The notes beneath the pieces were generated by a model, which did no database searches, was not told the origin of the DNA, and was given only the letters and a program-made list of their open reading frames with translations. From the sequence record MN850585.1: a stretch of 64,000 nucleotides of DNA. One strand, given 5' to 3'. Positions within the stretch are counted from its first letter, which is position 1; every line of letters starts with the position of its first letter. The DNA comes from Escherichia phage skuden. The translations under genes and the position numbers were made by a program. This document shows, piece by piece, positions 52,699 to 54,268 of the stretch.

Positions 52699-52952
52699 AT
52701 TAAATCTTTTTAGAGAACTTCTAAGAACCTAAGCAACAAGGTTCCACAACAAGCTGTAATAACCTTAGAAGCCCTCTAAAAAGACCTAAAAAGGTCTTTG
52801 CATAGTCTTGTTTAATCCGGTGACTAGAACCTTTGGAGAGCTTGATATTATCTCTTCTCCGTGACACCTACTAGGTGCTTTATTAGTGTGTACGACAACA
52901 CACGCGGTATACCAAAGCAACATCCGAATGAAGCTTGGCTTTAAATCTTATT

Positions 52953-53043
52953 AGGCGGTAAGTAAAGGAGTCGAACCCTCACCGTATCTCTACAGTGGCA
53001 ACTGTTTTCAAGACAGTTTGGCTACCATTAGCCGCTACCTACC
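52953..53043 (-). tRNA. tRNA-Ser (anticodon UGA), long variable arm
   Basis: Anticodon stem-loop ACTGT-CTTGAAA-ACAGT; about 90 nt; 3' end reads CCT rather than CCA. Confidence 0.65.
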
Positions 53044-53056
53044 CCTAATAAGACTT

Positions 53057-53139
53057 TGGCATGGGACGGAGGAGTTGAACCCCTTTGAAACGGTGTTGGA
53101 AGCCGTTGCTCATGCCTTAGAGTCTTAACATCGTCCCAT
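53057..53139 (-). tRNA. tRNA-like gene, probable anticodon CCA (Trp), atypical D region
   Basis: Perfect acceptor ATGGGAC/GTCCCAT, T-loop TTCAACT, anticodon loop TTCCAAC; about 8 extra nt between acceptor and D-arm. Confidence 0.4.
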
Positions 53140-53281
53140 ACTATAATTCGAAGCTTACCGTATTATCTCAACACTGTAAAGCCCCTTCTCAGATTATTTA
53201 CATGTTCTGGAAAACATGAGATACAGACCACCTCCCTACAGGAAGACCCGCTTAGGTCGTCTAAGTAATCTGCTAACTAAT

Positions 53282-53358
53282 TGGCACACCCTACAGGATT
53301 CGAACCTGTAACTCAATGATTAGAAGTCATTTGCTCTGTCCAGTTGAACTAAGGGTGC
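53282..53358 (-). tRNA. tRNA-Arg (anticodon UCU)
   Basis: Anticodon stem-loop AATGA-CTTCTAA-TCATT, T-arm ACAGGTTCGAATCCTGT. Confidence 0.75.
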
Positions 53359-53605
53359 ATTAATCTTTAAAGACTCTCTTAAAAAGCCCTTAAAGATGCC
53401 CACTTTATTAATCATACCGTGGGCTAGTACGCCAAATTCTTTGATGAGGGATTGGAAGACCTCACTGGTGTTTAGCCTATCAAGCTACTGCCAGAAAAAC
53501 ATTGTCGTTTGCATTTATTTTAAATTTGCAAAATAGACGCTACGCAACGAAAACTAAGGTTACTATAAAGTGGTCACATCTTAATGTCAACAACTTTATT
53601 GAAAT

Positions 53606-53681
53606 TGGTACTGTGAGAAGGATTCGAACCTTCTTCCTTTCGGTTATCAGCCGAATGCACATCCATATGTGCTTTCACAGC
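53606..53681 (-). tRNA. tRNA-Ile (anticodon GAU)
   Basis: Anticodon stem-loop TTCGG-CTGATAA-CCGAA, D-arm GCAC/GTGC. Confidence 0.75.
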
Positions 53682-53683
53682 AT

Positions 53684-53760
53684 TGGAGGTTCAGATGGGA
53701 ATCGAACCCACATTCATAAGGCTTATGAGACCCTTGCATTACCTTATCTGCGACTGAACC
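53684..53760 (-). tRNA. tRNA with anticodon CAU (Met, or Ile2 if lysidine-modified)
   Basis: Acceptor GGTTCAG/CTGAACC, anticodon loop CTCATAA, T-arm GTGGGTTCGATTCCCAT. Confidence 0.6.
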
Positions 53761-53764
53761 ATTT

Positions 53765-53840
53765 TGGTAGAAGTGGAGGGATTCGAACCCATCGCCTGTC
53801 AGATTAAAAGTCTGCCGCATCACCATTCTGCTACACTTCC
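53765..53840 (-). tRNA. tRNA-Lys (anticodon UUU)
   Basis: Anticodon loop CTTTTAA on CAGA/TCTG stem; acceptor GGAAGTG/CACTTCT. Confidence 0.6.
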
Positions 53841-54040
53841 ATTAAATTATCTTTGTAGATAAGCTACCCAGACTTGCTTAAGGTCTGTAGCGATGTGCCT
53901 TTTTGGGTTTAAATCTAGAATTTACCCTTTCACCCTTTGTGGTCGCATACTCACAGGTAAGCTTAATAACTTATCTACAAAGATAATTACCAGACCGTTG
54001 TTTATCATCTTAAGTGCTACCATTACACCAACTCGACATC

Positions 54041-54090
54041 TGCCGAGTGAAGGAATCGAACCTTCTCCTTTTCTTTACCGAGAAATAGAT
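54041..54090 (-). pseudogene. tRNA-like fragment (T-arm and 3' acceptor half only)
   Basis: GAAGGTTCGATTCCTTC followed by ACTCGGC, but no complementary 5' acceptor half within 100 nt. Confidence 0.35.
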
Positions 54091-54100
54091 TGTTTAAGTT

Positions 54101-54128
54101 TTGCTGTAAACGGTCTTCTGTAAATTTG
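54101..54128. repeat. 28-nt repeat TTGCTGTAAACGGTCTTCTGTAAATTTG, copy 1
   Basis: Identical 28-mer at 54583-54610; degenerate copies near 54188 and 54750. Confidence 0.8.
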
Positions 54129-54268
54129 TTGAGCCAGACCAAGTTTTAAATTTTTCAAAATTAAATTGGCTTGAAATTTTAAGTAACTTGCTGTATTTGG
54201 TCTTCTGCTCCTTTAAAGGATACTCGTAAGAACTCTTTAAGGGAGGGGCTAAACAGCCCTCTCAAAAT

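Follow-up and report, generated by a model that had tools for sequence, protein, structure and literature searches.

Candidate Y RNA-like units beside a Ro60-fold gene in the tRNA array of a Felix O1-type phage

Ro60-Y RNA particles are conserved between bacteria and humans, but the RNAs involved have been identified in only a few systems, and none has been defined for the large DUF2828 branch of Ro60-like proteins, which spans at least 709 phage records. Thermus phage phiLo encodes a Ro60-fold protein together with two adjacent stem-bulge-stem RNAs, Yrl1 and Yrl2, both located upstream of the gene and selected through a CGAA motif (PMC12135203). In the Felixounavirus Bas63, the protein gp130, recognized as Ro60-like by its structure, is reported to counter the ppl defence and is encoded directly upstream of tRNA genes; the PhageMaP preprint offered the guess that Y RNAs are among the annotated tRNA genes of Bas63, and identified none (10.1101/2024.10.10.617714). 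Here we analyze 64,000 nucleotides of Escherichia phage skuden (MN850585.1; hereafter the window), a Felixounavirus of the Felix O1 type that encodes an orthologue of gp130. We propose, with a probability of roughly two in three, that spacers at the promoter-proximal end of its tRNA array encode four Y RNA-like noncoding RNAs, units A to D, with this Ro60-fold protein as their partner. In contrast to the preprint's suggestion, the present candidates come from spacers without annotation, and both their motif and their structure are defined; unlike the phiLo system as described, they involve a tRNA array, a CAGCAA motif and a tRNA-like module (PMC12135203).

All 25 tRNAs called by ARAGORN in the window are on the minus strand. 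A preliminary description had listed several gaps in this array as tRNA-free, and neither ARAGORN nor Rfam places a tRNA inside them; it had also rejected the spacer ORFs as coding, rightly in our view, the longest being ∼76 aa and none convincing. As candidate genes these small ORFs are short, overlap tRNAs, and show alignment indels that are not multiples of three. The inverted repeats that it quoted are present (AAGACCtaaaaaGGTCTT at ∼52781-52798, CACCTACTAGGTG at 52865-52877, and GACCCGCTTAGGTC at ∼53247-53260) but are minor features and not the main signal. What stands out statistically is a set of four repeated hairpin units, of which two fall in shorter spacers that it had not listed (54686-54776 and 54526-54608). 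Poor conservation among relatives, which it took as a sign against structured RNAs, is not what we see, with spacer identities of 95 to 100% in Felixounavirus and 82 to 98% in Mooglevirus. The Rfam scan that it recommended returned only tRNAs at gathering thresholds in the window and 8 relatives, and permissive scans gave mainly noise (plastid UTR and miRNA models on tRNA antisense strands or hairpins); the covariation analysis that it likewise recommended gave a strong signal in the 7-bp helix of the units and in the tRNA-like module. Its suggestion that the spacers may encode structured noncoding RNAs thus holds for some of the spacers, as covariation and wide conservation show, but not in its specifics; the remaining content looks heterogeneous, comprising promoter-like hexamers, a lineage-specific hairpin module and a tmRNA-like tag module (Table 1), and not T4-type "stable RNA." Our literature search found no Felixounavirus transcriptome.

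Table 1. Positions of the spacer features and the neighboring gene in the window.
Feature	Coordinates	Strand	Description
Ro60-fold protein gene	55104..56519	-	471 aa; same strand as the tRNA array and directly upstream of it; proposed partner
Y-like unit A	54694..54772	-	79 nt; tRNA-Glu/tRNA-Met gap; UGAC-AGA-AGACCAA-UUA-CAGCAA ... UUGGUCU-G-GUCA
Y-like unit B	54536..54605	-	70 nt; tRNA-Met/tRNA-Asn gap; UUAC-AGA-AGACCGU-UUA-CAGCAA ... ACGGUCU-G-GUAA
Y-like unit C	54131..54210	-	80 nt; Asp-Lys spacer; GAGC-AGA-AGACCAA-AUA-CAGCAA ... UUGGUCU-G-GCUC
Y-like unit D	53987..54123	-	137 nt; carries the permuted tRNA-like module
Unit D, S1	54123-54120 / 53990-53987	-	4-bp helix
Unit D, bulge	54119-54117	-	AGA
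Unit D, S2	54116-54110 / 53998-53992	-	7-bp helix
Unit D, motif	54106-54101	-	CAGCAA
Unit D, V hairpin	54089-54066	-	
Unit D, T-arm	54065-54049	-	
Unit D, closed acceptor helix	54048-54042 / 54037-54031	-	loop AGAU
Unit D, D-arm	54028-54014	-	
Long hairpin module	53845..53988	-	22-nt arms, 95% complementary, 100 nt between; abuts tRNA-Lys(UUU)
Promoter-like site, sigma-70 type	53562..53590	-	TTGACA-17-TATAGT; 11/12 consensus positions; inside the array
tmRNA-like tag module	53397..53521	-	in spacer 53359-53605; unannotated
Tag module, resume-type GCA	53512	-	after AUAAAU
Tag module, tag frame	53512-53483	-	ANDNVFLAVA, 10 codons
Tag module, two tandem stop codons	53482-53477	-	in hairpin loop
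Arg-Ser spacer	53141..53281	-	promoter-like hexamers, conserved small hairpins
tRNA-Trp-like noncanonical RNA	53057..53139	-	A1-U72, G73-CCA; possibly tRNA-Trp
Ser-Leu spacer	52700..52952	-	conserved ∼80-nt block with CACCUAGUAGGUG
Hairpin of ∼90 nt, Ser-Leu spacer	52789-52700	-	26-nt arms; abuts tRNA-Leu(UAG)
Structured element, Thr-Val spacer	52198..52292	-	highly conserved; fold -30.7 kcal/mol, z -2.96

The protein encoded at 55104-56519 is assigned in Pfam to DUF2828 and DUF7788, with no match to TROVE, and searches of PDB sequences (phmmer and profile search) returned nothing relevant. Its AlphaFold2 model (pLDDT 85, pTM 0.86) nonetheless gave 11 top Foldseek matches in the PDB that were all Ro60/Rsr/TROVE proteins over their full length (best, 2i91_A; E 3e-8, TM 0.66), with Xenopus, human, Deinococcus and Thermus-phage Ro60 matched at E 3e-8 to 1.5e-6 and the phiLo protein (PDB 9kop, 9l5y) among the best. 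As modeled, the protein has a Ro60 fold, with a ring of alpha-helical repeats followed by a vWA domain. It is also homologous over its full length to the mycobacteriophage "Ro-like RNA binding protein" (31 to 34% identity). Because its domains are DUF2828/DUF7788 and not TROVE, with no sequence-level PDB match, its mode of RNA binding could differ from that of characterized Ro60 proteins.

The four minus-strand units have a common build, in which the 5' and 3' ends pair in a terminal helix made of a 4-bp segment (S1), an internal loop of ANA facing a G, and a 7-bp segment (S2), with NNA-CAGCAA following the 5' strand and the G following the 3' arm. The motif is present in all units, with the rare variants CUGCAA or CAGCAU. 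The interiors of units A to C are AU-rich and poorly conserved, with weak fold scores (z -1.1 to -2.0), and unit C is missing as a whole module from some Felixounavirus records. On the minus strand of the array, each of the four CAGCAA occurrences is matched by a perfect 7-bp Watson-Crick arm with G after it; none of the 73 elsewhere in the window is, and the rate in shuffled downstream sequence is 0.3%. Across 40 distinct units, the 7-bp helix is paired in 98.9% of cases and all 7 pairs have changed on both sides, giving a covariation score of 0.907, compared with 0.241 for shuffles (0/500 reach the observed value) and 0.08 to 0.14 for slid partners. Units in distant loci were found by a fixed-register search; as a control for selection bias, 29 of the 40 have a perfect arm followed by G, again against 0.3% in shuffled sequence. 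Two further candidates were set aside: the Thr-Val spacer element (52198-52292), which has GAAGACCG-like words in common with the units and no CAGCAA, and a CAGCAA with a 7-bp arm pair within the CDS at 51460-52026, which we ascribe to chance.

In the window the units lie 330 to 1,100 nt downstream of the Ro60-fold gene on the same strand. Elsewhere, units adjoin homologous genes in phages of Listeria, Bacillus, Mycobacterium, Klebsiella and Campylobacter. Individual cases are Klebsiella FBKp34, LeBron, Rumpelstiltskin, Cronobacter S13, Campylobacter CP81, Listeria List-36 and Bacillus FADO, together with Ounavirinae-type loci at a protein identity of 53 to 63%. Among 75 viral loci from IMG/VR, 46 carry units, at median distances of 200 to 340 nt from the gene, with 72 on the gene strand and 4 on the opposite strand (1.7 expected); the other 29 metagenomic loci have no unit within 3 kb under the strict pattern. 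Genomic linkage is no proof of physical association. The hairpins might instead act only in cis, as signals (RNase III or RNase E sites, for example) for processing or terminating the polycistronic tRNA precursor, and not be stable RNAs with a protein partner, a reading in keeping with the position of the units between tRNAs in the window, with the other long hairpins that abut tRNA 5' ends (52789-52700 and 53988-53845), and with the unremarkable interiors of units A to C. We regard it as unlikely, given that elsewhere the units track the Ro60-like gene and not tRNAs: 25 of the 46 unit-bearing loci are tRNA-free, only 4 of the 72 units come within 20 nt of a tRNA, and the mycobacteriophage loci have no tRNA nearby. 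Nor would a conserved single-stranded CAGCAA and a covarying embedded tRNA-like module be expected of simple cleavage sites.

That module is confined, within the window, to unit D (fold, -35.5 kcal/mol; z -2.7). The preliminary description had noted a tRNA remnant here, at ∼54041-54090, with a T-arm and a 3' acceptor half but no 5' partner. The T-arm and the 3' acceptor strand are indeed present (54049-54065 and 54042-54048), but so is the partner: ACUCGGC (54048-54042) is followed, after a 4-nt loop, by the 5' acceptor strand GUCGAGU (54037-54031) and then by the D-arm. The "remnant" is a complete circularly permuted tRNA-like module and not a fragment. Eleven distinct units from unrelated phages (unit D and 10 others) share the order V, T, acceptor, D; in these, 98.9% of cells are paired and 13 of 16 pairs are double-changed (0/500 shuffles). 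Units A to C lack the module. Unit D has no contiguous cloverleaf, and the Rfam tRNA model matches its T-arm only, at 12.4 bits.

Could unit D and its kin have nothing to do with Ro60 and be tRNA genes that have decayed or are dimers, one tRNA supplying the T-arm and the next the D-arm, or else a functional tRNA in split or permuted form? ARAGORN-type tools call the corresponding region of phage REP5, annotated as a 131-nt "tRNA-Thr," an intron-containing tRNA and elsewhere use it as a "3' tRNA domain"; the acceptor loop of several relatives encodes NCCA; and Chen et al. (2014) warned that dimeric tRNAs can mimic YrlA (PMC4201824). Such an origin nevertheless seems improbable to us, as the acceptor strands lie 3 to 11 nt apart and are always mutually complementary, with 7/7 pairs covarying, while the anticodon arm is absent. 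The module is moreover always found inside the S2 helix and CAGCAA, which also exist without a tRNA-like part, and this arrangement is kept from Actinobacteria to Enterobacteria phages beside the same gene. That the units are DNA-level repeats (targets of recombination or homing endonucleases, or miniature mobile elements spread in tRNA arrays) is very unlikely even though the spacers are insertion/deletion hot spots in which whole modules come and go between close relatives and HNH endonuclease genes sit in those of garuso and Felix O1, because the strand bias and the G.U pairs, which on the opposite strand would read as C.A mismatches, indicate an RNA-level element, and the helix sequence varies with pairing kept while only one strand conserves the single-stranded motif.

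The tag module in the spacer at 53359-53605 resembles tmRNA (ssrA) in its resume-type codon, its short tag with a hydrophobic end, its stops within a helix-5-like hairpin and its coding-type conservation; the tag of Escherichia coli tmRNA is ANDENYALAA. It differs in being mobile among phages, prophages and phage-plasmid-like replicons, whereas tmRNA is a host gene. Downstream of the stops are the hairpins GUGAGG/CCUCAU and GCCCAC/GUGGGC, and the predicted 198-nt transcript has a fold z of -3.85. ARAGORN recognizes the resume consensus and tag, and the Rfam tmRNA and tmRNA_permuted models align through the tag region below threshold (gathering score, 47 bits; RF00023, 17.3 and 11.1 bits; RF04321, 24.5 and 11.4 bits). 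Across 7 distinct versions, found in unrelated phages, one prophage and one plasmid, synonymous changes leave the frame intact, with the consensus A-N-[D/E]-x-x-[F/Y/V]-L-[A/M]-[V/A]-A, and an overlapping AUG frame is not conserved. Matches occur in 649 phage records, 755 plasmid records and 339 of 5,426 E. coli genomes; the E. coli matches lie in prophage or plasmid DNA and not in the ssrA gene, and capture of host ssrA was rejected as the origin. No tRNA-like domain for the module (an acceptor with G3.U70, a T-arm and a 3' ACCA) was recognized in the window, no pseudoknot series was found within it, and there is no GGG-type 5' end ahead of it; it does not appear in the 2014 census of phage ssrA.

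We tentatively raise the possibility, which we consider doubtful, that the tag module is the working message part of an unrecognized, horizontally mobile class of phage "tag RNA," decoded on stalled ribosomes without a canonical tRNA-like domain. Were this so, tag templates might be delivered in a new way, via a separate or unconventional tRNA-like piece, possibly one of the odd tRNA-like RNAs in such arrays, or the phage might rewire host trans-translation, for example by variant C-terminus tagging. A functional module would be the first trans-translation-type element reported for enterobacterial phages, present in hundreds of phages, prophages and likely phage-plasmids. A separate reading, in which tag module and unit D form a multipiece trans-translation RNA, the spacers thus encoding tmRNA and not Y RNAs, draws on the ARAGORN "permuted tmRNA" of Mordin and Mijalis (tag ANDNVFLAVA followed by two stops), which runs from unit D through the tag, and on the closed-acceptor topology that unit D shares with two-piece tmRNA precursors. 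It is highly improbable: these calls, like the "tmRNA" of swi2, are chimeras that borrow real tRNA genes, the 5' tRNA domain lying inside tRNA-Lys; three tRNA genes and a promoter-like site separate unit D from the tag module; no unit has the alanine identity pair G3.U70; and many phages have the tag module without the Ro60-like gene region, or units without the tag.

Other elements of the array are varied. The preliminary description took 53044-53140 as a tRNA, which is called neither by ARAGORN, even relaxed, nor by the Rfam tRNA model. The RNA at 53057-53139 is instead a conserved noncanonical tRNA-like RNA: every Ounavirinae-type locus has it, and its acceptor and anticodon stems show compensatory changes. 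Its best Rfam match is tRNA-Sec (16.9 bits). The D region is poor and the T stem has 4 bp, and an anticodon-like CCA sits in a loop of 9 nt, or of 7 nt if a C.A pair closes it. Some of its features are presumably linked to TrpRS identity elements, and it is possibly a tRNA-Trp. Just upstream of it, in the Arg-Ser spacer, is a promoter-like TTGAGA-17-AATTAT (53171-53143), and the same spacer has TTTACA (TTGACA in Mooglevirus)-17-TAAGCT; it is 93 to 100% identical in relatives over the shared part, and in Mooglevirus carries extra insertions, another tRNA-like element among them. The promoter-like site at 53562-53590 is conserved, with TAAGAT as its -10 in Mooglevirus, and two similar copies lie upstream of the array (55085-55057 and 54994-54965). 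The long hairpin at 53845-53988 is a lineage-specific insertion/deletion module, 99 to 100% identical in Felixounavirus and absent from Mooglevirus and several Felixounavirus records. In the Ser-Leu spacer, besides a weak terminator-like hairpin (AAAGACC/GGUCUUU), the arms of the hairpin at 52789-52700 covary, with 16 perfect pairs and three double changes relative to the window in one locus (L005). The Thr-Val element is 94 to 98% identical in Felixounavirus and Mooglevirus, a variation too small for a covariation test.

We hypothesize that units A to D are cotranscribed with the tRNAs on the minus strand from the promoter-like sites at ∼55085 and 54994, and would be released as the flanking tRNAs are excised by RNase P and tRNA 3'-end nucleases. 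Covariation shows the fold that each would adopt, in which the paired ends form the 4-bp helix, the asymmetric A-N-A/G internal loop and the 7-bp helix beside single-stranded (U)UA-CAGCAA. This stem-bulge-stem and motif are the putative binding site of the Ro60-fold protein, a proposal prompted by the tight, strand-specific genomic linkage across phyla. Ro60-Y RNA-PNPase complexes offer an analogy for the permuted module of unit D, which would attract, or act as a decoy for, host factors that bind tRNA or degrade RNA, and in relatives with NCCA in the acceptor loop a cut by RNase P would expose a tRNA-type end. The resulting ribonucleoprotein would likely be the active form of the anti-ppl factor of Bas63, which we take to be phage JohannRWettstein. 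Exact coordinates are given for the units, and the phage is a tractable one of E. coli/Salmonella with a protein whose Bas63 orthologue has an anti-ppl phenotype; the RNA target of a phage Ro60-like protein, and its route to defeating a defence system, become directly testable. They also offer a searchable signature (7-bp helix, NNA-CAGCAA and 3' G, the permuted tRNA-like module being optional) that accounts for recurrent misannotations beside these genes, such as overlong "tRNAs" and "tRNA-OTHER."

Among known RNAs, rnaC and rnaD of phage T4 (species 1 and 2) are likewise small RNAs inside a phage tRNA cluster, and rnaC ends with a T-arm and an acceptor-like 3' part. The analogy to T4-type small stable RNAs in the preliminary description fails on closer comparison: inspected by eye, rnaC and rnaD lack the defining 7-bp stem with NNA-CAGCAA ... 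G and the permuted module, and the 8-kb T4 stretch examined has no Ro60-like gene. Dictyostelium Class I RNAs (RF01414, PMC7919456) are similar in being 50 to 65 nt long, with a short helix joining the ends, a variable interior, a 3' ...CUG and a conserved single-stranded CCUUACAGCAA directly after the 5' strand; they differ in that the spacing is off by one nucleotide and that their known binder is the RRM protein Rnp1A, with no known link to DUF2828. The window units and loci L019 and L092 score 13.2 to 24.3 bits with RF01414, below its gathering score of 41.5 bits. With the same motif in the same position, both could belong to one ancient class partnering DUF2828-type Ro60-like proteins, an idea we hold less likely than the tag-RNA reading.

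By analogy, units A to D resemble Y RNAs with the architecture of YrlA (RF02553, PMC4201824), linked to the adjoining Ro60-fold gene. Sequence similarity is partial: RF02553 gives no match to unit D at E≤10 (161-nt search) and no member reaches its gathering score (69 bits), while sub-threshold but significant matches occur in LeBron (39.8 bits, E 8e-6) and at loci L040 (39.2 bits) and L092 (28.7 bits). The phage units differ from YrlA in carrying (U)UA-CAGCAA beside the terminal helix, the canonical Ro-binding motif GNCGAA(N0-1)G being in no unit, in having a well-defined, covarying 7-bp stem followed by G, in their DUF2828/DUF7788 partner, which is not Pfam TROVE, and in the four copies that Felix O1-type phages hold within the tRNA array. 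Like YrlA, they are encoded beside a Ro60-fold gene and their 5' and 3' ends pair; unit D has the same internal order of V, T, loop-closed acceptor and D (PMC4201824), and its 7-bp acceptor helix, with CCA encoded in some phage members, suggests RNase P or CCA-type processing as in Mycobacterium smegmatis YrlA. Units A to C, as shorter sister RNAs without the full tRNA-like part, are in turn reminiscent of YrlB.

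The best-supported reading of units A to D, four minus-strand hairpins in spacers of the tRNA array, is that they serve the adjacent Ro60-fold protein as Y RNA-like partners. The phage is a Felix O1-type myovirus (Felixounavirus) that shares 97.7% identity with phage VpaE1_ev108 over region 52000-55000. Coverage of this region reaches at least 80% in 243 phage records, and the best matches include JohannRWettstein (96.7% identity), which we take to be Bas63. ARAGORN called 25 tRNA genes between 50108 and 54938, 23 of which were confirmed by Rfam, and since every one lies on the minus strand, the spacer RNAs are to be read on that strand, from high to low coordinates. 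The tRNA-free gaps and inverted repeats reported in the preliminary description are both found in the window, and the spacer ORFs it rejected as coding are indeed short and unconvincing; two of its details are wrong, so that the observation is confirmed in part, and its interpretation is supported in part. Close relatives (L001-L004) carry a tRNA-Arg(ACG) gene (545-620) at the distal end of the block that is absent from the window (52044), and spacers of garuso and Felix O1 hold HNH homing-endonuclease genes (L002 2267-2752; L012 1841-2335). The array is a hot spot for insertions and deletions.

Features of the tRNA array and its upstream flank, with coordinates on the window
Feature	Coordinates	Strand	Remarks
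Ro60-like ORF	55104-56519	minus	Directly upstream of array; Pfam DUF2828 and DUF7788
Promoter-like site	55085-55057		Upstream of array
Promoter-like site	54994-54965		Upstream of array
Unit A	54772-54694	minus	
Unit B	54605-54536	minus	
Unit C	54210-54131	minus	
Unit D	54123-53987	minus	
Hairpin module	53988-53845	minus	Missing from Mooglevirus and some Felixounavirus records
Promoter-like site TTGACA-17-TATAGT	53590-53562		Inside array; best match in region
tmRNA-like tag module	53397-53521	minus	Ile-Arg spacer, downstream of promoter-like site; unannotated
Non-canonical tRNA-like RNA	53057-53139	minus	Conserved in every Ounavirinae-type locus

Repeat finding and folding showed that the four units share one hairpin design. 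An outer helix of 4 bp is separated from an inner helix of 7 bp by a 3-nt A-N-A bulge facing a lone G, and NNA-CAGCAA follows the 5' strand of the inner helix. Compensating changes separate the units in both the outer helix (UGAC/GUCA, UUAC/GUAA, GAGC/GCUC) and the inner helix (AGACCAA/UUGGUCU versus AGACCGU/ACGGUCU). Units A and B sit in shorter spacers that the preliminary description had not listed, while the Asp-Lys spacer is largely taken up by units C and D. The element previously taken for a tRNA-like remnant without a 5' partner lies inside unit D, and the partner strand does exist: past the T-arm GAAGG-UUCGAUU-CCUUC (54065-54049), the minus strand continues with ACUCGGC, AGAU, and GUCGAGU (54048-54031), the first and third of which pair in a closed 7-bp acceptor-type helix, and a D-arm, GUGU-AAUGGUA-GCAC (54028-54014), lies 3' of that helix. 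The interior thus runs from a variable-arm hairpin through the T-arm and closed acceptor helix to the D-arm, and a short CUUA/UAAG stem links it to the terminal helix. A unit-like GAGCCAU ... AUGGCUC pair, 219 nt apart with UUGCAGCAA after its 5' arm, also occurs on the minus strand at 51768-51986, inside an ORF at ~51460-52026 that forms a coding part of the array; it is probably a chance occurrence.

A search for sequence-level matches of the neighboring Ro60-like protein to solved structures found none. An AlphaFold2 model built on 34 homologues (pLDDT 85, pTM 0.86) matched Ro60 proteins over the full length in a PDB fold comparison (best TM-score 0.66), the 11 best matches comprising Xenopus and human Ro60, Deinococcus Rsr, and the Ro60 of Thermus phage phiLo (E values of 3e-8 to 1.5e-6), with vWA-only structures ranking below them. 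The protein is matched in 709 phage records by tblastn, among them cluster L mycobacteriophages, where full-length homologues of 31 to 34% identity are annotated "Ro-like RNA binding protein." In Bas63, gp130 is reported to be Ro60-like, to be encoded directly upstream of the tRNA genes, and to counter the ppl defence (PhageMaP preprint, 10.1101/2024.10.10.617714); the same preprint guesses that some annotated tRNAs may be Y RNAs and names none. The Ro60 of a Thermus phage binds two adjacent Y-like RNAs and also host PNPase (2025, PMC12135203).

Loci whose proteins are 53 to 63% identical keep the gene order DUF5681, Ro60-like gene, tRNA array, DUF7217, and terminase, and their units have changed on both strands of the inner helix (GGACUGU/ACAGUCC, AGAAUC/GAUUCU, AGUGUCU/GGACACU, AGGCUGU/GCAGCCU) and of the outer helix (UUGC/GCAA, AAGC/GCUU, UUGA/UCAA). 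We searched more distant phages for the register of the unit (7 bp, NNA-CAGCAA, 3' arm, G), which adjoins the Ro60-like gene in Klebsiella phage FBKp34, Cronobacter phage S13, Campylobacter phage CP81, and Bacillus phage FADO, as three units in mycobacteriophages LeBron and Rumpelstiltskin, and as three units within a 397-nt gap upstream of the gene in Listeria phage List-36. When the spliced arms of 40 distinct units were aligned without gaps, pairing in the 7-bp helix reached 98.9%, and each of its seven pairs had changed on both sides. The 11-pair structure of both helices has a covariation score of 0.907, against 0.241 for shuffles (0 of 500 reaching the observed value) and 0.08 to 0.14 when the 3' partners are slid. 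Because each 3' arm had been picked by complementarity, a control was run: a perfect Watson-Crick arm followed by G is present in 29 of the 40 units versus 0.3% of shuffled downstream sequences, and at all four CAGCAA sites in the array versus 0 of 73 elsewhere in the window. Across 75 metagenomic IMG/VR loci (encoded proteins 38 to 47% identical), the unit pattern occurs 72 times on the gene strand and 4 times on the opposite strand, compared with 1.7 after shuffling; 46 loci carry units, at a median distance of 200 to 340 nt from the gene. Twenty-five of these 46 loci contain no tRNA gene and only 4 of the 72 units abut one, indicating that the units track the Ro60-like gene rather than tRNA arrays.

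The permuted order seen in unit D (V, T, closed acceptor, D) recurs in Mooglevirus, two metagenomic Ounavirinae-type loci, and several IMG/VR loci, as well as in FBKp34, LeBron, Rumpelstiltskin, and S13. Among 11 distinct units, the three helices of this module are 98.9% paired, with 13 of 16 pairs changed on both sides and an observed covariation score attained by 0 of 500 shuffles. A discriminator base plus CCA opens five of the acceptor loops (GCCA in Mordin and L076; ACCA in S13, L007, and L092). The bacterial Y RNA YrlA begins with 5' GNCGAA(N)G, followed by V, T, acceptor-like, and D stem-loops, and its gene adjoins that of Ro60 (Chen et al. 2014, PMC4201824). The Rfam YrlA model gave significant but sub-threshold scores on LeBron (39.8 bits, E of 8e-6, full model) and on two further loci, L040 (39.2 bits) and L092 (28.7 bits), and no match on unit D, suggesting that these RNAs are a distinct variant with YrlA architecture rather than members of RF02553. 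Judged by sequence and covariation, the units form a family, widespread beside phage DUF2828 genes, whose defining features are the CAGCAA motif and a 7-bp terminal helix that covaries. We are close to certain that a conserved structured RNA family exists; that its members bind the Ro60-fold protein and act in counter-defence we infer with a probability of roughly 0.65 to 0.7.

Two further observations concern the neighborhood of the Ro60-like genes. In List-36, a ROOL RNA (L019 1426-1977; 91.5 bits, just below the gathering score of 99.1) lies ~600 nt upstream of the three CAGCAA units and the Ro60-like gene, and an RtcB-type "tRNA splicing ligase" (L019 5810-7021) lies 1.3 kb downstream, a placement that echoes the bacterial rsr-yrlBA-rtcBA arrangement. 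Over-long "tRNA" annotations (131-nt tRNA-Thr, 121-nt tRNA-Ser, 113-nt tRNA-OTHER, 114-nt tRNA-Asp) adjoin Ro60-like genes, as in REP5 (L003 2625-2755), S13 (L017 4896-5138), and FBKp34 (L015 7003-7116); Y-like unit motifs coincide with or fall inside them, and they are probably mis-annotations.

The Ile-Arg spacer gives weak Rfam tmRNA matches whose alignment crosses a tag-coding region, AAAAUAAAU GCA AAC GAC AAU GUU UUU CUG GCA GUA GCU UGA UAG, with the frame at 53512-53483 and the stops at 53482-53477. It reads ANDNVFLAVA-stop-stop, both stops lying in a hairpin loop; the E. coli ssrA tag is ANDENYALAA-stop-stop. The 10-codon frame is kept in seven distinct versions, including ANDNVFLAVA in Felixounavirus and Mooglevirus, ANEEMYLAVA in a lambdoid prophage, swi2, and KP591P3, ANDDVVLMAA in Salmonella phage FSL SP-058, ANDAQFLAVA in Erwinia phage EAP4, and ANDNQYLAVA in a Klebsiella plasmid. 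Many third-position changes in the frame are synonymous, an overlapping AUG frame shows no conservation, and the hairpin after the tag covaries (GUGAGG/CCUCAU, GCAGGG/CCCUGU, GCAAGG/CCUUGU, GUAGGG/CCCUAU, GCGAGG/CCUCGU). Matches to the module occur in 649 phage records spanning unrelated groups and in 755 plasmids, of which 725 are non-mobilizable (~108-121 kb among the matches listed) and likely phage-plasmids; the module is unannotated throughout and stands beside tRNA genes in five of six diverse loci examined. Of 5,426 E. coli genomes, 339 contain a match of about 125 nt that is ~81% identical. Identity with host ssrA is ruled out, as the E. coli copies sit on plasmids and in prophages, for example between the Q antiterminator and holin genes of a lambdoid prophage. 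ARAGORN in tmRNA mode recognized the resume consensus and tag in Mordin and Mijalis; its "permuted tmRNA" there is chimeric, taking in unit D and part of tRNA-Lys, and no canonical tRNA-like domain for the module was found with ARAGORN in the window or in relatives including Mordin, Mijalis, and swi2. In a 2014 tmRNA census, mycobacteriophages and Bacillus phage G are the only phages listed with ssrA. In siphoviruses and lambdoid prophages, the module is followed by ~300 nt of conserved, highly structured RNA (swi2, L103 615-913; KP591P3, L104 615-860; E. coli prophage, L102 3615-3760) that includes a T-arm closed by a 12- to 13-bp helix and a long-range GUGUGGUG/CCACCACA helix; the two may be parts of one larger unrecognized RNA.

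In the Arg-Ser spacer, promoter-like hexamers lie just upstream of a tRNA-like RNA in a stretch (53044-53140) that had been passed over as a tRNA, a call made by neither ARAGORN nor the Rfam tRNA model. Both the acceptor stem (AUG/CAU to GCG/CGC) and the anticodon stem of this RNA show compensatory changes among relatives. It carries A1-U72 and G73-CCA, its T stem is 4 bp long, and a 9-nt loop holds a CCA triplet. The A1-U72 pair, G73-CCA end, and CCA loop triplet fit E. coli TrpRS identity rules, and no tRNA-Trp is called in the phage. Given its atypical D region and 9-nt loop, the assignment of this RNA as an unconventional tRNA-Trp is tentative. Between tRNA-Arg(UCU) and the Trp-like RNA, Mooglevirus has a further tRNA-like element with loop GGGUAGCUCCC, a T-arm, and a GCCA end (L009 ~3600-3700 and L010 ~3960-4050, oriented coordinates), with relatives in L006 and L008 and none in the window.

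All spacers outside the units, the Arg-Ser spacer included, are 95 to 100% identical within Felixounavirus and 82 to 98% identical in Mooglevirus, and were not detected by BLAST in more distant loci. The Thr-Val spacer is strongly conserved and structured (z of -2.96), its sequence variation being too low for covariation. In the Ser-Leu spacer, a ~90-nt hairpin with covarying arms abuts tRNA-Leu; the spacer also holds a conserved block of ~80 nt and a weak terminator-like hairpin. The hairpin module between unit D and tRNA-Lys is lineage specific. This module (53845-53988, 22-nt arms) and the long Ser-Leu hairpin (52700-52789, 26-nt arms) are both near-perfect minus-strand hairpins that stop a few bases 5' of tRNA-Lys(UUU) and tRNA-Leu(UAG), respectively. 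The latter covaries among relatives, whereas the former is either present or absent as a whole; the two may act as RNase III-type processing sites or represent mobile inserts.

The analogy drawn in the preliminary description with the stable RNAs of T4-type clusters does not extend to the units, whose signature is absent from T4 rnaC and rnaD. The Rfam model of the Dictyostelium Class I RNAs gave recurrent weak matches (13 to 24 bits against a gathering score of 41.5) at units A, B, and D of the window, in List-36 (L019 2621-2676), and in L092 (4937-4991), because the two kinds of RNA have a common layout in which a helix is followed by UUACAGCAA and a 3' CUG, the motif being identical in sequence and in position.
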